Source: a virus (Duplodnaviria; Heunggongvirae; Uroviricota; Caudoviricetes). From it: DNA of 6,043 nucleotides. Position numbers and translations under genes: made by a program. This document shows, one piece after another, positions 1 through 6,043 of this stretch. The stretch is taken from positions 1 to 6,043 of IMG/VR virus record IMGVR_UViG_2737471819_000031. One strand, written 5' to 3'. Numbering within the stretch: the first letter of the stretch is position 1; every line of letters begins with the position of its first letter. The notes under the pieces are model-generated. The model saw only the letters and a list, made by a program, of their open reading frames with translations. It did not search any database and was not told the DNA's origin.

Positions 1-201
1 ATGACTACGACTATTGATAAAAATCAATGGTGTGGACAATTCAAGCGATGCAATGGATGCAAGCTGCAATCGGAATGCATGGTTAAGCCTGAAGAAATGT
101 TTCCTGTAATGGAAGATGGGAAATATGTCGATAAATGGGCAATACGAACGACGGCAATGATTGCCAGAGAACTTGGTAAACAGAACTACAAGGCTGCCTG
201 A
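1..201 (+). CDS. ral: Ral-like restriction-alleviation protein (66 aa)
   Basis: Complete 201-nt ORF starting at window position 1. The protein (MTTTIDKNQWCGQFKRCNGCKLQSEC...) matches my recollection of phage lambda Ral in sequence and length, has four Cys in the N-terminal third, and lies upstream of a cIII-like gene as in lambda. Identity is from memory and not verified. Confidence 0.55.
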   Translation: MTTTIDKNQWCGQFKRCNGCKLQSECMVKPEEMFPVMEDGKYVDKWAIRTTAMIARELGKQNYKAA

Positions 202-218
202 TGGTGGCCTTTATTTTT
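190..218 (+). terminator. Intrinsic terminator with the ral stop codon in the hairpin loop
   Basis: RNA stem AAGGCUGCC / GGUGGCCUU (9 bp including two G-U pairs), loop UGAU containing the TGA stop at 199..201, followed by UAUUUUUG. Confidence 0.5.
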
Positions 219-259
219 GTCCGTAAATAATTTCATGCTTATTACAATCAAGGTGATAT

Positions 260-709
260 ATGGAAGAACAAGCAAACAAGATTCTCGTAGAACTACTGCA
301 AAAAGCCAGCAATGGAATAGATGCTGCTGTTTCATTTAGCCAAGCACAGATTCCTGATGTTGTTCATCAGTTGCTGCTATGGAATATGGTTGACAGTCTG
401 ATTAAAACATTAATAGCCATTCTAACAATCCCACTGGTTTTCTGGTTTATGAAGAAGCAGTGCCAAAGAGTTGAGACAGGTAAAATCGGTGATGAAGGAT
501 ACTCATGGGAGAGGGGAAATCCCAAATACAGGCCGACAATGGTTTGGGATAGCAAAGGAGATGTTAACCTTCTTATCATGCCATTGGTTGGAGTTTTGAC
601 TCTGTGGGGGATTTTTATTATTGGTGTAGTAACCAATATGACTTGGTTAAAAATTTGGCTGGCCCCAAAACTTTACCTTATCGAATATGCAGCATCATTG
701 GTTAAGTAA
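260..709 (+). CDS. Small two-TM inner-membrane protein of unknown function (149 aa)
   Basis: ORF with SD-like AAGGTG 4-5 nt upstream of the ATG. Two strongly hydrophobic segments (LIKTLIAILTIPLVFWFM and LLIMPLVGVLTLWGIFIIGVVT) flank a charged ~40-aa loop. Terminators lie on both sides. Confidence 0.6.
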   Translation: MEEQANKILVELLQKASNGIDAAVSFSQAQIPDVVHQLLLWNMVDSLIKTLIAILTIPLVFWFMKKQCQRVETGKIGDEGYSWERGNPKYRPTMVWDSKGDVNLLIMPLVGVLTLWGIFIIGVVTNMTWLKIWLAPKLYLIEYAASLVK

Positions 710-713
710 TTTC

Positions 714-740
714 AGGCCGCATAGTCGGCCTTTATTTTTG
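714..740 (+). terminator. Intrinsic terminator
   Basis: Perfect 6-bp stem AGGCCG / CGGCCT with 6-nt loop, followed by TTATTTTTGG, 5 nt after the stop of ORF 260..709. Confidence 0.65.
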
Positions 741-768
741 GCATAAACAACAGAATAAATACTGCACT

Positions 769-796
769 GTGTATTCATTCCAACGAGTGAATACAC
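769..796 (+). repeat. Perfect 9-bp inverted repeat (GTGTATTCA-N10-TGAATACAC)
   Basis: Arms are exact reverse complements with a 10-nt spacer, in the non-coding stretch between the membrane-protein terminator and the cIII-like gene. Could be a protein-binding site or RNA hairpin; function unknown. Confidence 0.45.
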
Positions 797-858
797 GGAG
801 CAATGTCGCTCGTAACTAAACAGGAGCCGACTTGTTCTGATTATTGGAAATCTTCTTT

Positions 859-884
859 GCCCTCCAGTGTGAGGGCCTTTTTAT
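859..884 (+). terminator. Intrinsic terminator
   Basis: 6-bp stem GCCCTC / GAGGGC with 6-nt loop followed by CTTTTTATAT; only the + strand gives a U-tract. Confidence 0.5.
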
Positions 885-948
885 ATGCATACCAATAATG
901 CTTCACCAGAGGCATTTTCGTTATGCAATCAAACAGAAGGAGCATCCT

Positions 949-1119
949 ATGCAACAGTTCGCTATTGCAGGGGCGGCATCGGTTCGCCCTTTCAACCCGA
1001 TTTTATCGGTACAGCATTCACGAAAAAACATTTTAACCGGAGCAGACTTTAAACAACCAAGAATGAAAAGTTTGCTCGAAAAGCTTTGGGATATTTTGAA
1101 ACAACAAGGCCGTCCATGA
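949..1119 (+). CDS. cIII: CIII-like protein (56 aa; FtsH-inhibitor family in lambda)
   Basis: Strong SD AAGGAG 6 nt upstream of ATG 949. N-terminus MQQFAIAG resembles lambda CIII MQYAIAG as I recall it; C-terminal SLLEKLWDILKQQG resembles the CIII amphipathic region; size and position fit. The longer six-frame ORF from 844 lacks an SD and spans the terminator at 859..884. Confidence 0.5.
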   Translation: MQQFAIAGAASVRPFNPILSVQHSRKNILTGADFKQPRMKSLLEKLWDILKQQGRP

Positions 1120-1286
1120 GTTTTACAGATAACTGGTCAGACGAAGAATTCATTCGTCAGATGAAAGAATTAATCGGTAGCGAAGGAGATATTCATGTCA
1201 CTTGCAACCACAGTGAAGGAGAGCAAGTTACAGAGACGCATGTACACGCAGCAGGCGTTAATGTATCGCCAGAAGGGAGATCGTGA
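1116..1286 (+). CDS. Hypothetical small acidic protein (56 aa) at the kil position
   Basis: ATG 1116 overlaps the cIII-like stop as ATGA (translational coupling) with a weak AAGG SD 6 nt upstream. Sequence not recognised; 'kil position' is by synteny only. Confidence 0.35.
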   Translation: MSFTDNWSDEEFIRQMKELIGSEGDIHVTCNHSEGEQVTETHVHAAGVNVSPEGRS

Positions 1287-1365
1287 AGGTGTTCGCGTAT
1301 TTTTAAATGCGGCAAAGACTGAAGTATTAAATCAGCGTTATTTACTTGGGTCATGTCCATTCTGA
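1240..1365 (+). CDS. Hypothetical small protein (41 aa, or 34 aa from ATG 1261) just upstream of erf
   Basis: ORF below the six-frame track threshold (MYTQQALMYRQKGDREGVRVFLNAAKTEVLNQRYLLGSCPF). It fills the otherwise non-coding 1287..1375 gap and ends 10 nt before the erf start. It overlaps ORF 1116..1286 in another frame and the SD is weak, so one of the two may be spurious. Confidence 0.3.
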   Translation: MYTQQALMYRQKGDREGVRVFLNAAKTEVLNQRYLLGSCPF

Positions 1366-1375
1366 GAACAATCAT

Positions 1376-1981
1376 ATGAGCAAAGAATTTTACGCAAGAC
1401 TGGCAGCTATTCAGGAGAATCTGAACGCGCCAAAGAACCAATACAACTCATTCGGCAAATATAAATACAGAAGCTGCGAAGACATTCTTGAGGGTGTTAA
1501 GCCGTTACTGAATGGCCTGTTTTTATCAATCAGCGATGAAGTTGTGTTGATTGGTGATCGGTATTACGTGAAAGCCACGGCAACTATTACCGATGGCGAA
1601 AACAGTCATACGGCAACCGCACTAGCACGAGAGGAAGAAAGCAAGAAAGGAATGGATTCTGCACAAGTTACGGGAGCTACAAGCTCTTATGCACGTAAGT
1701 ATTGCCTCAATGGTTTGTTCGGCATTGATGATGCGAAAGATGCAGATACAGACGAGCATAAACATCAGCAGAACGCAGCAGCAAAGCAATCAAAACCATC
1801 ACCTACACCTGAACAGGTTCTAAAAGCATTCACTGACGCAGCAATGCAGAAAAACACCGTAGAAGAGCTTAAACAGGCGTTCGCCAAAGCGTGGAAGATG
1901 CTCGAAGGCACACCGGAGCAGCACAAAGCGCAGGACGTTTACAACATCAGACGAGACGAATTAGAAGGAGCGGCTGCTTAA
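1376..1981 (+). CDS. erf: Erf-family single-strand annealing protein (201 aa)
   Basis: Protein from ATG 1376 begins MSKEFYARLAAIQENLNAPKNQYNSFGKYKYRSCEDILEGVKPLL, which matches the P22 Erf N-terminal domain as I recall it; length is close to P22 Erf (~204 aa). The six-frame ORF starts 30 nt earlier at 1346, but neither start has a strong SD; 1376 is chosen on the homology. Confidence 0.75.
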   Translation: MSKEFYARLAAIQENLNAPKNQYNSFGKYKYRSCEDILEGVKPLLNGLFLSISDEVVLIGDRYYVKATATITDGENSHTATALAREEESKKGMDSAQVTGATSSYARKYCLNGLFGIDDAKDADTDEHKHQQNAAAKQSKPSPTPEQVLKAFTDAAMQKNTVEELKQAFAKAWKMLEGTPEQHKAQDVYNIRRDELEGAAA

Positions 1982-2364
1982 TGGCACATTCGATTACTGT
2001 AAGACTAAACAAGCCCGCAAGAGAGTTTCAGGGCGGGGAAAATATCGGATTCAACATCCGTGCTGGCGTTCAGTATTACGATCGCCAGACAAAAAAGAAA
2101 GAATGGACAAACTACAGCGCCGTTGTATTTGCCAAGCCGGGAGCGCAAGCGGATTACTACCGTAGTGTTCTTGTTGAAGGTGGCATTGTAGAAATTACCG
2201 GAGAAAACATCAGGGTTGATGTTTATCAGGGGCAAAATGGTCAATCAATCACTCTTGAATTACTGAATGCAAAGATTGGATTTGCAACTTCAGGAAACAG
2301 CCAACAGCAGCAAAGTAGCAATCATCAAAATCATCCTGAATATGACGATTCCATCCCATTCTGA
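1981..2364 (+). CDS. ssb: Phage single-stranded DNA-binding protein, SSB-like (127 aa)
   Basis: ATG 1981 overlaps the erf stop (TAATG) with AGGAG upstream. C-terminus ...EYDDSIPF is the acidic SSB tail (E. coli SSB ends DDDIPF). The core EWTNYSAVVFAKPGAQADYYRSVLVEGGIVEITGE parallels the E. coli SSB OB-fold segment [31 protein letters not shown]. A Gln-rich linker precedes the tail. Confidence 0.7.
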   Translation: MAHSITVRLNKPAREFQGGENIGFNIRAGVQYYDRQTKKKEWTNYSAVVFAKPGAQADYYRSVLVEGGIVEITGENIRVDVYQGQNGQSITLELLNAKIGFATSGNSQQQQSSNHQNHPEYDDSIPF

Positions 2365-2387
2365 TTTAGAAAAATAAGGATTTAATT

Positions 2388-2684
2388 ATGCCAGCGCCTT
2401 TGTATGGTGCGGATGACGCGCGCCGCTGTTCCGGCAATTCCGTATCGGAGGTGCTGGATAAATTCAGAAAAAACTACGACCTGATAATGTCGCTACCGCA
2501 GGAAACGAAAGAGGAAAAGGAGTTTCGCCACTGTATATGGCTTGCAGAGAAAGAAGAACGCGAGCGAATTTGCCAGACATCAATCCGACCATTCCGCAAA
2601 GCCACATATACCCACTTCCCTGAATATATCGACCCGCGCCTGCGTAATTACCGCTCACGCTATGGCGCTATCAGTAATGACTGA
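2388..2684 (+). CDS. Hypothetical protein (98 aa)
   Basis: SD AAGGA 7 nt upstream of ATG 2388. Basic/acidic soluble protein, not recognised. Confidence 0.55.
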
Positions 2685-2694
2685 GGAATTTACC

Positions 2695-2859
2695 ATGAGA
2701 GGACTTGCATACAATCCCGGCATTCTTCCGGCAGAAATGATTATTCGCCAACGCGTAAAGCCAATGCCATCGAGAGAGGAATTGCTTAAGAGAAACTCGT
2801 TTCCATCAGTGAATCAAAACAAATATCTGAATGCGATGTGGCGGAGTGGGAAGAAATGA
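2695..2859 (+). CDS. Hypothetical small basic protein (54 aa)
   Basis: SD GAGGAA 5 nt upstream of ATG 2695. The longer six-frame ORF from 2542 would overlap the preceding gene by 143 nt and lacks an SD, so the internal start is preferred. Stop overlaps the next start (ATGA). Confidence 0.45.
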
Positions 2860-3371
2860 AACAAATGACACTAATTGAGATGGATGGATTTCTGAAAGGT
2901 AAATGCATCCCATGTGATTTAAAGGTTAACGAAACAAATGCTGAATATCTGGTGCGTAAATTTGCTGAAGCGGAGGCCAAGATTTTGGCTCTGTCCGAAG
3001 ACCAACAGAAAGCGATTGAGTCAATTAAGCAGGCTGATGCAGCTGTTAAGTTGGCACACGAGAAGTTTTCGGCGCTGGCGGCGGAGAATGCGGGGCTGAA
3101 GTCTGGCGCTATGGACGAAATCAAGGTTATCAACCGTGGAGGTCAGGCATATTGCGTAAAAGATGGAGTGCAAGTTAATCCCATGTATGCAAGAGGGTGG
3201 AATGACTATCGCGCAAAGTCTCTGCAATCAGACACCCCAGCCACCGATGCTTTCCTGGCTGATGTACGGGCACAGGGGGTAGAGATGTTTGCTGACCATC
3301 TGTTGTGCCCAGACCTTGATGACACTATCCGTGACTTTGCTGCCCAGCTTCGCAAAGGAGTGCGGTCATGA
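2856..3371 (+). CDS. Hypothetical protein with central coiled-coil region (171 aa)
   Basis: ATG 2856 overlaps the upstream stop (ATGA); GGAG 9 nt upstream. Ala/Glu/Lys-rich predicted helical segment ([47 protein letters not shown]). Six-frame start at 2838 is also possible. Confidence 0.5.
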
Positions 3372-4045
3372 GCAACATCGACAAACGCGCATTACGTCAT
3401 AGCGCAGAAAGCATAATCGGCATTCTGGAAAACATTGCCGGGTTCGAACCATCTGATATCGACGGCGACTCTGTAGAGCTCCGCTTTGAAACTGAGGACG
3501 GTTTCGATACTGGTTGTGACGTTAGCATTGTTGACCAGTGCCAGAAAACCGCTGATGTAGTTCGGGCGATGCTGGATGAGCTGGAAAGAAACCAGCAGTA
3601 CATCAAATCCCGCGACCAGGAGAACGAGGATATTGCGCTAACGGTAGGGAAGCTGCGTGTTGAGCTGGAAGCCGCAGAGAACAACCTTATTGATAGTGAG
3701 TGCCATGTTGCTGAACTGGAAGAAGCGCTACGCGATAAGCAGGCGTTACTTGAAGCATCAGAGAAGCGCATAGCAGAACTGGAAGCTCGGGAAATAAAAC
3801 CAGCCAAAGGTGAAGTTCTTGTCGTTGTTTCTGGTTTTACTGGTTGCGGAAAAAGCGCCATTGCCGGGGAAATAGAAATCGCGATGAAGGCTATTGGTGT
3901 ACCGGTTCAGTGGACTAATGGCGATGCGGAAAAGCGCATGACAGGAGCTGACTGGCTGACAGCGATTGAGATGTACAAACCAACAGTGCGCATCGTGGAA
4001 GTTAATGTGCCACGCGCCGCTGGCATTCGCATCAAAGGAGAGTGA
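3368..4045 (+). CDS. Ead/Ea22-like coiled-coil protein (225 aa)
   Basis: ATGA overlap with the upstream stop; SD AAGGAG 7 nt upstream. N-terminal [10 protein letters not shown]..., a long heptad-like acidic coiled coil ending ...EKRIAELEAREIK and C-terminus ...AAGIRIKGE resemble Ea22-like proteins of enterobacterial lambdoid prophages as I recall them. Synteny fits (between recombination genes and xis). Confidence 0.5.
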   Translation: MSNIDKRALRHSAESIIGILENIAGFEPSDIDGDSVELRFETEDGFDTGCDVSIVDQCQKTADVVRAMLDELERNQQYIKSRDQENEDIALTVGKLRVELEAAENNLIDSECHVAELEEALRDKQALLEASEKRIAELEAREIKPAKGEVLVVVSGFTGCGKSAIAGEIEIAMKAIGVPVQWTNGDAEKRMTGADWLTAIEMYKPTVRIVEVNVPRAAGIRIKGE

Positions 4046-4046
4046 T

Positions 4047-4547
4047 ATGACCACTATTACCAAAGAGCGACTGCTGACAATCAGGCAGTGGCGCGAAACA
4101 TACGGACCTGGTAGCAACGTTGTACTGCCAGCAGAAGAAGCGGAAGAACTGGCACGGATTGCTCTGGCATCGCTGGAAGCAGAACCGGTGGCGTGGAAGG
4201 TAACTTTCACGCAAATTGACCGTGAATATAACACGTTCACTGGTATGTATTCTGACAAAGCAGAAGTCGAACGGTGGGTGCGGCTGCATAAAGCATGTAA
4301 TTTTCTGGCAGATATAACACCGCTTTATACCGCCAAGCCAGTGCCGGTAACTCCGGATGGTTGGATAAGCTGTAGTGAGCGAATGCCGGATAAGTTAATT
4401 CCGGTAATGGTCATGTATGAAGACGGTGAGATGTGGTCTGCAATGTGGAATGGCAATCGCTGGGATGATGGCACCGAATATCCGGATCCGCACTCAGTTA
4501 CGCACTGGTGTGAAATGCCAGCAGCACCGCAGCAGGAGGTGAAGTGA
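4047..4547 (+). CDS. DUF551-like phage protein (166 aa)
   Basis: SD AAGGAG 6 nt upstream of ATG 4047, which lies 1 nt after the upstream stop. C-terminal region WISCSERMPDKLIPVMV...WDDGTEYPDPHSVTHWCEMPAAP matches the DUF551 signature (W-I-S-x-x-D-R-L-P ... V-T-H-W-M-P-L-P) common in the ead region of lambdoid prophages. Confidence 0.6.
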   Translation: MTTITKERLLTIRQWRETYGPGSNVVLPAEEAEELARIALASLEAEPVAWKVTFTQIDREYNTFTGMYSDKAEVERWVRLHKACNFLADITPLYTAKPVPVTPDGWISCSERMPDKLIPVMVMYEDGEMWSAMWNGNRWDDGTEYPDPHSVTHWCEMPAAPQQEVK

Positions 4548-4831
4548 TGGACTCCTTCGCGAAATATACGATTATTGACTGGATAGCATTCCTTCAGGTT
4601 TTGCTCATCTGGTTTTATATGGCTTACAGGAGTGGGCAGTGGATTGTCAGTGTAGCCTGTAGCAAGGGATGGCGTTGGTGGAACCGAAAGAATAAAAAAG
4701 CGCTGGCCTTGGATTCGTTTTACGAAGCATTCAATCTTAACAGCCTTCAGCCTGGTTCTGTCATTGTTGTCACCACTCAAAGCGGCATGACGATACAAAT
4801 TCACAAGCCAAAGGAGGAAGGTCGTGGCTAA
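4547..4831 (+). CDS. Hypothetical small protein with N-terminal hydrophobic helix (94 aa)
   Basis: ATG 4547 shares one base with the DUF551 stop (TGATG); SD AGGAGG 8 nt upstream (six-frame start is GTG 4544). N-terminal IIDWIAFLQVLLIWFYMAY is TM-like, followed by a Trp/Arg-rich stretch (KGWRWWNRKNKK). Confidence 0.5.
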   Translation: MDSFAKYTIIDWIAFLQVLLIWFYMAYRSGQWIVSVACSKGWRWWNRKNKKALALDSFYEAFNLNSLQPGSVIVVTTQSGMTIQIHKPKEEGRG

Positions 4832-5108
4832 CCTGCAACTTGCCGTAAAAGGTGAATACTTCGATGCCATGATTCGCAGAGAGAAAACGGAAGAGTATCG
4901 CCTGTGTAATGACTATTGGAATAAGCGCCTCATTAACCGTAAGTATGACCGCCTGATTATCACAAAGGGATATCCGAAGCGCGACGACTCCAGCCGCAGA
5001 ATTGATGTTCCGTATGACGGATATGAAATCAAGACAATCACACATCCCCACTTCGGCGATAAACCGGTAAAGGTATACGCGATAAAGGTGAATATCGGCA
5101 ATGAATAA
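4824..5108 (+). CDS. ASCH/PUA-like small protein (94 aa), GTG start
   Basis: GTG 4824 is preceded by a near-perfect SD AAGGAGG at 6-nt spacing and overlaps the upstream gene by 8 nt. N-terminal KGEYFDAMIRREKTEEYRL fits the ASCH pattern (compare E. coli YqfB FQDDILAGRKTITIRD as I recall it). Family call is tentative. Confidence 0.5.
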   Translation: MANLQLAVKGEYFDAMIRREKTEEYRLCNDYWNKRLINRKYDRLIITKGYPKRDDSSRRIDVPYDGYEIKTITHPHFGDKPVKVYAIKVNIGNE

Positions 5109-5112
5109 CAAT

Positions 5113-5137
5113 CCTCGCACTCGCGGGGATTTCTTTT
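5113..5137 (+). terminator. Intrinsic terminator ending the coupled gene run
   Basis: RNA stem CCUCGC / GCGGGG (6 bp, one G-U) with loop ACUC, followed by AUUUCUUUUAUC, 5 nt after the stop at 5108. Confidence 0.45.
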
Positions 5138-5180
5138 ATCTGAACTCGCTACGGCGGGTTTTGCTTTATGGAGATGATAA

Positions 5181-5348
5181 ATGCACTTCCGAGTCACAGG
5201 TGAATGGAATGGAGAGCCATTCAACAGAGTTATCGAAGCGGAGAACATCAACGACTGCTACGACCACTGGATGATATGGGCGCAGATAGCACATGCAGAC
5301 GTAACCAATATTCGAATTGAAGAACTGAAAGAACACCAAGCCGCCTGA
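5181..5348 (+). CDS. Hypothetical small protein (55 aa), absent from the six-frame track
   Basis: ATG 5181 with GGAG 7 nt upstream; translation MHFRVTGEWNGEPFNRVIEAENINDCYDHWMIWAQIAHADVTNIRIEELKEHQAA. Its TGA stop sits in the loop of the terminator at 5341..5361. The antisense six-frame ORF 5166..5372 has no such signals. Confidence 0.5.
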   Translation: MHFRVTGEWNGEPFNRVIEAENINDCYDHWMIWAQIAHADVTNIRIEELKEHQAA

Positions 5349-5361
5349 TGGCGGTTTTTTT
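5341..5361 (+). terminator. Intrinsic terminator with a stop codon in the hairpin loop
   Basis: Stem CCGCC / GGCGG with loop TGAT (TGA stop at 5346..5348), followed by a 7-T tract. Confidence 0.65.
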
Positions 5362-5375
5362 ATTGGAGACAAGAA

Positions 5376-5720
5376 ATGTCAGATTTGGCTATGAAGGTTT
5401 TGGAATGGCAATCGACTGGCGATGTCGGCATCAGTAGCGCAACTCTTGCCTCAATCGCATGTGGACTGAAAAAGAATATCTATGGTCATCACTTCGGCGC
5501 TCCACATGACGCAGCAGATTTCCGACGATGCGTTGCACTTGTTGAGCAGATTCCAGAAATCAGAGATTCATTCGACAAGGTTGCAAAGCGCGTTCCGGCA
5601 TTCAAAGGAATCCTCAACGAATGGGATTCACTCGTTGCTCTGTTGAAGTCTGAAATGAAGACGTACGGGAACAAAGCACCAGAGACTTACAGAAGAATCA
5701 GCGAGCTACGCAAGGACTAA
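5376..5720 (+). CDS. Hypothetical protein (114 aa) at the ea8.5 position upstream of xis
   Basis: ATG 5376 with GGAG 7 nt upstream, directly after the terminator T-tract. Soluble, probably helical protein, not recognised. Followed by two tandem terminators. Confidence 0.55.
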   Translation: MSDLAMKVLEWQSTGDVGISSATLASIACGLKKNIYGHHFGAPHDAADFRRCVALVEQIPEIRDSFDKVAKRVPAFKGILNEWDSLVALLKSEMKTYGNKAPETYRRISELRKD

Positions 5721-5723
5721 CCC

Positions 5724-5752
5724 GCCTCACACTCGATGAGGCATTTTCATTT
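5724..5752 (+). terminator. Intrinsic terminator
   Basis: Perfect 6-bp stem GCCTCA / TGAGGC with 7-nt loop, followed by ATTTTCATTT, 3 nt after the stop at 5720. Confidence 0.5.
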
Positions 5753-5777
5753 ATCAAGATATCCAGACCTACCATCG

Positions 5778-5800
5778 CCGCATCAATGCGGTTTTTTATT
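5778..5800 (+). terminator. Intrinsic terminator (second of a tandem pair)
   Basis: Stem CCGCA / TGCGG with loop TCAA, followed by TTTTTTATT. Confidence 0.55.
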
Positions 5801-5842
5801 GCCTGATTTGCAGGTTCGATTCCCTATTCGGAGATAGCACTC

Positions 5843-6043
5843 ATGCAACACGAACTACAGCCTGATTCACTGGTTGATTTGAAATTCATCATGGCCGATA
5901 CTGGCTTCGGTAAAACCTTCATCTACGACCGGATTAAGTCCGGCGATCTGCCAAAAGCCAAAGTTATCCACGGACGAGCAAGATGGTTATATCGTGACCA
6001 TTGTGAATTCAAAAATAAGCTCTTAAGCCGCGCCAATGGGTAA
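5843..6043 (+). CDS. xis: AlpA-family DNA-binding protein, putative excisionase (66 aa)
   Basis: GGAG 9 nt upstream of ATG 5843; complete ORF ending in TAA at the last base of the window. LVDLKFIMADTGFGKTFIYDRIKSGDLPKAKVIHGRARWLYRDHCEF matches the AlpA/excisionase-type winged-helix family as I recall it. It is the last gene of the co-oriented operon, where lambdoid phages carry xis ahead of int. Confidence 0.6.
   Translation: MQHELQPDSLVDLKFIMADTGFGKTFIYDRIKSGDLPKAKVIHGRARWLYRDHCEFKNKLLSRANG

Follow-up and report, generated by a model that had tools for sequence, protein, structure and literature searches.

The gene orf55 lies at positions 5181 to 5348, on the + strand, of the window analyzed here (the whole 6,043-nucleotide stretch of IMG/VR virus record IMGVR_UViG_2737471819_000031, positions 1 to 6,043 of that record), and lambdoid phages carry it as a genuine, protein-coding accessory gene, one already known and named, its recognition here being a rediscovery. 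On its identity and its coding status we have next to no doubt. The window is the leftward early operon of an Escherichia coli prophage, from ral (1-201) through to an AlpA-type excisionase gene (xis), and orf55 lies near the distal end of that operon and is co-oriented with its genes. That this known coding gene of an early operon specifies a protein that binds a host protein is, as a combined statement, rather probable in our view; the binder mechanism taken by itself is proposed tentatively.

The orf55 gene, its coding strand and its family

The following features define the gene and its antisense shadow:

5170-5173, + strand: Shine-Dalgarno sequence GGAG, followed by the 7-nt spacer ATGATAA and then ATG at 5181-5183
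5181..5348, + strand: orf55 coding sequence, 55 codons and TGA, encoding a 6.5 kDa acidic protein
5166..5372, - strand: antisense open reading frame (ORF) of 68 codons, a non-coding shadow of orf55

A sequence-only reading of this DNA had proposed the gene from its ATG at 5181, the GGAG at 7-nt spacing and the 55-codon frame, and each of these can be read in the sequence, as can the final codons, GCC GCC TGA, at 5340-5348. The product, MHFRVTGEWNGEPFNRVIEAENINDCYDHWMIWAQIAHADVTNIRIEELKEHQAA, is acidic and Trp-containing as described there, with an isoelectric point of 4.9, a net charge of -6 and three Trp residues. It is 100% identical to lambda orf55 (lambdap35, NP_597778.1), to "ORF55" of phage 434 and to HK140 gp31, and identical copies occur in lambda NC_001416 and 27 other phage records. 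The lambda copy (NC_001416 29121-29285, complement) is annotated "hypothetical protein, predicted by GeneMark". The same reading had called the gene unlisted, which holds for the ORF track it used, where a length cut-off had kept the gene out, and not for the public record, as orf55 carries an annotation in the RefSeq entry for lambda and in those E. coli genome records that were inspected. Its statement that the protein has no assigned function stands: Orf55 has no match in Pfam, NCBIfam or PADLOC, and its full-length match in the phage orthologous groups (phrog_676, E 6.6e-40, residues 1-55 of 55) is labelled "unknown function". In the literature, the exo-xis interval of lambda has seven ORFs, of which orf55 is one (PMC3824215), and a CRISPR interference essentiality map of lambda skipped orf55 for want of a protospacer-adjacent motif (PMC10695390); literature searches on NP_597778 and on transcriptome or terminator mapping found nothing. 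A 301-nt block around orf55 is present in 2707 of 5426 complete E. coli genomes, at up to eight copies per genome, and the gene is annotated "hypothetical protein" there.

Assemblies labelled Shewanella, Pseudomonas, Kitasatospora, Oceanobacillus, Bradyrhizobium, Paenibacillus and others also gave exact copies of orf55, either on contigs of ~48.4-48.5 kb or on short contigs of low coverage. These are almost certainly contamination by lambda control DNA, and "Campylobacter phage CJLB-4" (MW057783.1, 48,361 bp), with orf55 at lambda-like coordinates, may be a further case. The scan of genome contigs returned almost solely such lambda spike-in and was unsuited to the analysis of divergence, and the scan of viral contigs kept only copies of at least 96% identity; divergent DNA was obtained protein by protein. 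The resulting set comprised the ORF from 105 loci, i.e., 42 distinct nucleotide versions, including Klebsiella-type homologs with ~75% protein identity.

The + frame of orf55 is under strong purifying selection. All 42 nucleotide versions keep the 55-codon frame intact, more than 20 of them encoding the identical protein, and the variable sites fall at sense codon positions 1, 2 and 3 in the numbers 22, 10 and 49, i.e., 49 of 81 at position 3. The ratio of nonsynonymous to synonymous substitution rates (dN/dS) in the sense frame was 0.10-0.12 by the Nei-Gojobori method (window against three Klebsiella-type copies; dS was saturated in two further ones). Of the 24 distinct variants seen in close copies, 19 are silent in the sense frame, far above the expected 19% (binomial P = 3e-10). 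It is because of this conservation that orf55 is taken to be coding, and the length of the ORF alone is not significant: the window has 26 ATG-initiated ORFs of at least 55 residues against ~8 in shuffled sequences, and many of the 26 are shadows.

The antisense ORF is present as the earlier reading reported, and it was the only ORF in that reader's track at this position and the longer of the two, at 68 residues. That it could be the real gene, or the region non-coding, is nonetheless the least probable reading considered here: its dN/dS is 1.1-1.5, one homolog (L108) has two stop codons in it, the 24 variants of the close copies comprise, in its frame, 2 that are synonymous, 21 that are not and 1 stop, it has no family match, and its orientation opposes the operon. 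Codon position 1 of the antisense ORF is the wobble position of the sense frame. The codon analysis refutes it as a coding gene. The sequence-only reading had named two results that would count against orf55, a frame not conserved in related prophages and translation of the antisense ORF instead; both were checked, and orf55 withstands both.

The Orf55 family is small and restricted to the Enterobacterales. A search of 5.8 billion proteins gave 99 clusters; Escherichia and Klebsiella account for all of them, and no cluster has a Pfam domain. In 1.84 billion representatives, an exhaustive search with an HMMER profile gave only 53 matches, a handful of them full-length at 35-50% identity. When these 35-50% relatives were added and the 5.8-billion search was repeated, 152 clusters were obtained, all "hypothetical", with Yersinia, Pectobacterium, Pantoea, Citrobacter, Leclercia, Atlantibacter, Erwinia, Cedecea, Proteus and Enterobacter among their genera. 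Across 34 family representatives below 80% identity, the conserved core consists of F3, T6, G7, W9, N10, G11, F14, R16, I18, E19, A20, E21, D22, D25, H29, W30, W33, A34 and A39. All intact members are acidic (net charge -3 to -9, isoelectric point 4.2-5.5), and all divergent homologs have Shine-Dalgarno-like purine runs 5-9 nt before the start.

Terminators, transcription and the mobile module

The gene is bracketed by hairpins, which together with two more form a cluster ahead of xis/int:

5110..5139 (stem-loop 5110-5131), + strand: T1, upstream intrinsic terminator, AATCCTCGC-ACTC-GCGGGGATT, then TCTTTTAT; lambda t3
5142..5169 (stem-loop 5142-5161), + strand: T2, second upstream terminator, abutting the Shine-Dalgarno sequence, GAACTCGC-TACG-GCGGGTTT, then TGCTTTAT; lambda t4
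5338..5364 (hairpin 5338-5357), + strand: T3, intrinsic terminator overlapping the end of orf55, AAGCCGCC-TGAT-GGCGGTTT, then a T-run; lambda t5
5724-5742 and 5777-5792, + strand: two more terminator-like hairpins with T-runs, 3' of a 114-residue gene and 5' of the AlpA-type xis

From their GC-rich stem-loops, their T-runs and the conservation of their structure in relatives, T1, T2 and T3 are predicted to be rho-independent terminators. T1 (-13.1 kcal/mol, z -5.0) is identical in lambda and HK140; in some loci unrelated GC-rich stems take its place with the T-tail unchanged, so that structure is kept and sequence is not, and this exchange of the stem with retention of the T-tail puts a mosaic junction at the T-run. 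T2 (-11.0 kcal/mol, z -4.9) has G.U to A.U variants that preserve pairing. In T3 (-13.0 kcal/mol, z -3.6), which the HK140 annotation gives as a rho-independent terminator, the stem's 5' arm consists of the two Ala codons, GCCGCC, and the TGA (5346-5348) sits in the loop, bearing out the earlier claim of a stop embedded in a terminator. The flanking terminators had been described less completely: the upstream hairpin claimed is real, and it is one of two that stand there (5110-5131 and 5142-5161).

Terminator-like sites are in excess in this part of the window, with 7 in 4500..6043 against 1.4 +/- 1.2 in shuffles, and in the window as a whole, with 17 against 6.4 expected; the strong ones are all on the + strand, in clusters at 190-916 and 5110-5792. 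There are five terminators in total ahead of xis within 700 nt. In lambda, the terminators of the pL operon (tL1, the tL2 cluster and tL3) are passed by N-modified polymerase. Like those clusters, the orf55 hairpins are GC-rich and followed by T-runs on the operon strand; they differ in being known by computational prediction alone, the same three having been predicted in lambda with ARNold as t3, t4 and t5 (PMC4195576, Table 4).

The hairpin with the stop in its loop is kept in Klebsiella-type (75% amino acid identity) and Citrobacter-type (~50%) homologs. Where hairpins overlap the stop, the stem GCCGCC/GGCGG is constant and the loop varies (TGAT, CACTGA, AACTGA, AGAATAAG, TAACCAG), with the stop always in the loop. 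Klebsiella-type genes have one additional codon after the Ala-Ala pair, which argues that the conserved item is the hairpin nucleotides rather than a C-terminal Ala-Ala and favors a functional RNA structure. A C-terminal Ala-Ala degron of the ClpX type was considered and rejected, since the GCCGCC stem encodes an internal Ala-Ala in those homologs. The ral gene ends in the same way, with AAG GCT GCC TGA (...KAA-TGA) inside AAGGCTGCC-TGAT-GGTGGCCTT at 190-211, a T-run following and the loop being TGAT as in orf55; this hairpin is in the tL2 position and is probably the first terminator of the cluster that in lambda is called tL2. In Rfam there was no match at gathering score, the best being isrK (18.3 bits against 50) and STnc50 (19.3 against 55), and these sub-threshold alignments are driven largely by the terminator hairpin. 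The similarity to isrK, a small RNA of the Gifsy-1 prophage, is weak and covers window positions 5301-5361, and the alignment suggests the terminator hairpin alone as its cause.

The sequence-only reading had seen in this arrangement a self-contained gene cassette. No sigma-70-like promoter was found by a scan of 4500..6043, and because none was found orf55 is not such a cassette. The window as a whole has two weak promoter-like sites against 9.3 in shuffles, and the spacer at 5132-5180 contains a terminator and lacks -35 and -10 hexamers; a promoter of its own between T1 and the Shine-Dalgarno sequence was rejected on this reading of the sequence together with the promoter scan. Moreover, every homolog examined lies on the same strand as the genes of the leftward early operon (ral, erf/recT, kil, gam, xis, int). 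The gene orf55 is an operon gene bracketed by terminators, and by analogy with the lambda pL operon it would be read by antiterminated polymerase.

Membership of the operon holds in lambda, HK140 and the Klebsiella, Yersinia, Citrobacter and Proteus prophages, and the position within the operon varies. In Klebsiella-type prophages the homolog is just upstream of xis/int; the Yersinia homolog is near int, overlaps its neighbors and is without flanking terminators of the lambda type; in Citrobacter-type and Proteus prophages it is promoter-proximal, between a cI-type repressor and kil/gam/recT. In one such locus (L114, 2440-3245; likewise L115 and L116; prophages of Citrobacter/Enterobacteriaceae) the homolog, P0123, comes second among the ORFs that follow a pL-like operator/promoter region, after a 70-residue Lys/Arg-rich ORF (phrog_5305, labelled unknown), possibly an N-like antiterminator, and immediately before two terminators. 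The position of P0123 would be immediate-early. The constant feature of the family is thus membership of the early leftward operon and not adjacency to xis.

What moves between genomes is a module composed of hairpin, Shine-Dalgarno sequence, ORF and stop-overlapping terminator, and orf55 travels as this mosaic unit. A block of DNA at ~5102-5358, comprising both upstream hairpins, the Shine-Dalgarno sequence, the ORF and the terminator, is common to the window, lambda and HK140; homology breaks at both edges, and the window's flanks beyond the block are unrelated to those of lambda and HK140. Lambda orf55 shares with the window copy the 55-residue protein, the Shine-Dalgarno sequence, the two upstream hairpins, the stop-overlapping terminator, the strand and the operon, whereas its neighbors are ea8.5 upstream and the lambda xis downstream, in place of the window's ASCH gene upstream and 114-residue gene and AlpA-type xis downstream. 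Among ~100 loci there are at least 25 upstream and at least 7 downstream neighborhoods. The module invites comparison with the lambdoid "morons", i.e., extra genes with their own promoter and terminator between two phage genes. Like them, orf55 is a compact single-gene module with a terminator directly downstream, mobile as a unit and with sharp mosaic junctions; unlike them, it has no detected promoter, has terminators upstream as well, and lies within and co-oriented with an early operon, where morons are expressed from the repressed prophage.

A recurring junction motif, consisting of a terminator T-run, TTATTGGAGACAA, a few bases and ATG, stands ahead of differing genes: in the window at 5358-5378, before the 114-residue gene, and in Klebsiella-type loci (L110, L111) before orf55 itself. 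It may be a boundary sequence shared by modules and used for exchange. Some E. coli genomes also have chimeric or fused copies (P0100, P0103, P0105, P0063, P0074, P0096): orf55 joined in frame to the AlpA-type Xis (141 residues), the ASCH protein joined to orf55 from residue 8 (112 residues), an Ea22-like protein joined to orf55 from residue 18 (167 residues), and an unrelated N-terminus joined near residues 17-23. Their structure resembles what deletion, or recombination with a breakpoint within the ORF, would leave in a decaying prophage.

Candidate roles for Orf55

An AlphaFold2 model built from the family alignment (mean predicted local distance difference test score, pLDDT, 90.2) has a beta-beta-alpha-beta topology, with strands at 2-9 and 12-19, a helix at 23-37, a strand at 41-49 and then a disordered tail, in agreement with the published model. 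In it, the invariant W9-N10-G11 forms the turn of the N-terminal hairpin and the acidic E19-A-E-D-x-x-D25 the junction into the helix. The predicted fold appears to be a common small alpha/beta unit, and no function is identified by it. A PDB sequence search with the family profile returned chance matches only (E > 1).

The mechanism that we propose follows the analogy of the lambda pL operon. With no promoter of its own, orf55 would be transcribed from the early leftward promoter by an antitermination-modified RNA polymerase, which would pass the flanking intrinsic terminators, and Orf55 would be made early after infection or induction; the same terminators would halt unmodified polymerase and shield xis/int from stray transcription in the lysogen. 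Orf55 would then act alone and stoichiometrically, binding or inhibiting a host protein that the Enterobacterales have in common, and would thereby be a host-takeover or counter-defense factor, with the family-invariant hairpin turn W9-N10-G11 and the acidic cap E19-A-E-D-x-x-D25 as its putative binding surface. No partner gene is conserved across the many neighborhoods of the module, and this, together with the lack of a catalytic family, the acidity and the invariant patch, is why Orf55 probably binds a host protein and does so alone. The size typical of phage inhibitor proteins had drawn comment in the sequence-only reading, and such a role is plausible.

Several points weigh against this proposal. 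We found no experiment on orf55 alone in the literature, and the case for its translation is an evolutionary one throughout. Neither N nor nut sites are within the window, and antitermination at orf55 is suggested by the homology of operon organization. A role as binder or inhibitor would be the default expectation for any small acidic phage protein. The truncated and chimeric copies in E. coli genomes, moreover, indicate that orf55 is dispensable to the host.

Among more specific roles, a version of the binder in which Orf55 is a putative counter-defense protein, e.g., one that imitates DNA and so blocks a nuclease or sensor of the host, strikes us as unlikely, and still as the strongest of those considered. 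The protein is small and highly negative, its expression would be early, and it shares its operon with the counter-defense genes for Ral (1-201) and Abc2 (2388-2684); the phi29-type p56 inhibitor of uracil-DNA glycosylase and other small acidic DNA-mimic inhibitors are among the systems that come nearest to it. The fold, however, scores no better against such proteins than dozens of unrelated ones do, and the literature holds no link between lambda orf55 and any defense system. An anti-Avs "ORF55" of phage DruSM1, which appears in two anti-defense preprints, proved to be an unrelated DNA ligase.

The exo-xis region affects lysogenization, induction and host replication (PMC3824215; PMC9239242), and Orf55 might contribute to two effects ascribed to the distal genes of that region, a block on the initiation of host DNA replication and a synchronization of the cell cycle. 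The implication comes from Sergueev et al. 2002, cited in PMC9239242, where orf73, ea22, ea8.5 and orf55 are implicated together, and PMC3824215 summarizes the same effect for the exo-xis region. The effect was, however, assigned to a multi-gene fragment and not to orf55, and many phages have orf55 without lambda ea8.5 or ea22 adjoining it, sometimes in a promoter-proximal position, which makes it independent of those partners. A contribution of this kind seems improbable to us.

By modeling, Orf55 has been reported to resemble T7 Gp2, with 20% similarity in sequence and a fold like that of Gp2 (PMC8614690; Donaldson 2021), and on that basis it might inhibit or modulate host RNA polymerase through the beta-prime jaw and sigma-70 region 1.1. 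Both are small acidic phage proteins that are early and of beta-beta-alpha-beta topology with collinear elements, and in a Foldseek search of viral models three Gp2-like "RNA polymerase inhibitor" entries were found at E 0.04-0.07. The hhalign pairing of Orf55 with Gp2 is also collinear, matching F3, T6, F14, I18, A20, E21, W33 and R45, several of which are positions of the hydrophobic core. Against this, no viral structure was matched at E <= 0.001, and PF16857 (RNA_pol_inhib), the Pfam family defined by Gp2, was matched at E <= 1 neither by the window protein nor by four distant members of the Orf55 family. Comparison of the Orf55 family by hhalign gave a probability of 2.0% with T7 Gp2 (query sequence confirmed by PDB search) and, profile against profile, of 2.2% with an alignment of 17 Gp2 sequences. 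Gp2 R56 and R58, an Arg pair of the last strand that binding of the jaw requires and that is described as critical for polymerase binding (PMC8614690), are invariant in those 17 sequences, whereas their equivalents in Orf55 are N43, which is N, D or E and never R, and the variable R45, which is R in 11 of the 34 representatives (32%) and E in 10; the Gp2-invariant P30, Y47, F52 and P59 have no conserved Orf55 counterpart. The lifestyles of the phages differ as well. Gp2 serves phages that have their own RNA polymerase, whereas lambda relies on the host polymerase throughout. Membership of the Gp2 family is thus not supported by the sequences, nothing specific appears to favor Gp2-like action, and we regard this role as quite improbable.

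A mainly cis-acting orf55, in which a ribosome entering the terminator would block the hairpin so that translation gates read-through into xis/int, with the peptide secondary, is very improbable. In its favor, the stop-in-loop design is conserved across lineages with differing loops and recurs at ral (190-211); against it, the dN/dS of ~0.1 across the ORF, the confident fold and the invariant core indicate that the protein sequence itself is selected, and the Yersinia and Proteus homologs keep the protein where the terminator is absent. Such an effect in cis could exist in addition to the proposed binding of a host protein, and cannot be the main function of orf55.

The rest of the operon and the meaning of the gene

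The order of genes along the window is Ral, a 149-residue membrane-like protein, an Erf-family annealing protein, a single-stranded DNA-binding protein and the anti-RecBCD protein Abc2, and onward two Ea22-like coiled-coil proteins, a DUF551-like protein, an ASCH-domain protein, orf55, a 114-residue protein and the AlpA-type excisionase. Positions and family matches for some of them are as follows:

1-201, + strand: ral, encoding Ral (restriction alleviation); phrog_1055, E 1e-48
260-709: 149-residue ORF with hydrophobic segments, directly 3' of ral; phrog_3054 ("unknown function"), with a terminator at 714-731 after it
2388-2684: Abc2, a known counter-defense gene
4824-5108: ASCH-domain protein, just 5' of orf55
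within 5376-5798: 114-residue gene between orf55 and xis; phrog_1229 ("unknown function")
from 5843: AlpA-type xis (excisionase)

The 114-residue gene, like orf55, has no match in Pfam, NCBIfam or PADLOC. A "superinfection exclusion protein" is annotated somewhere in the matched regions of related E. coli records, and the ORF at 260-709 may be the one so annotated.

As a discovery, orf55 is minor, since the ORF, its name and the predicted flanking terminators were already in the lambda literature or RefSeq. The additions made here are formal proof that selection acts on the sense frame over the antisense, the definition of a family with an invariant core, the result that the sole published functional hypothesis (the Gp2-like one) is unsupported by family conservation, and the putative immediate-early position in one lineage. 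A targeted pull-down or an experiment with a defense library would be reasonable, and is not urgent. The gene is one of the few in lambda without an assigned function, yet it is found in half of complete E. coli genomes. It is conceivable, and we offer it as speculation, that the family represents an uncharacterized class of very early effectors that neutralize an Enterobacterales host factor by means of the WNG turn and the EAEDxxD cap, with the stop-in-terminator design linking read-through into the downstream genes (xis/int, or kil/gam in other lineages) to the effector's own translation; if the effector reading were true, candidates for that host factor would be a defense sensor or nuclease, a replication-initiation factor or a transcription factor.

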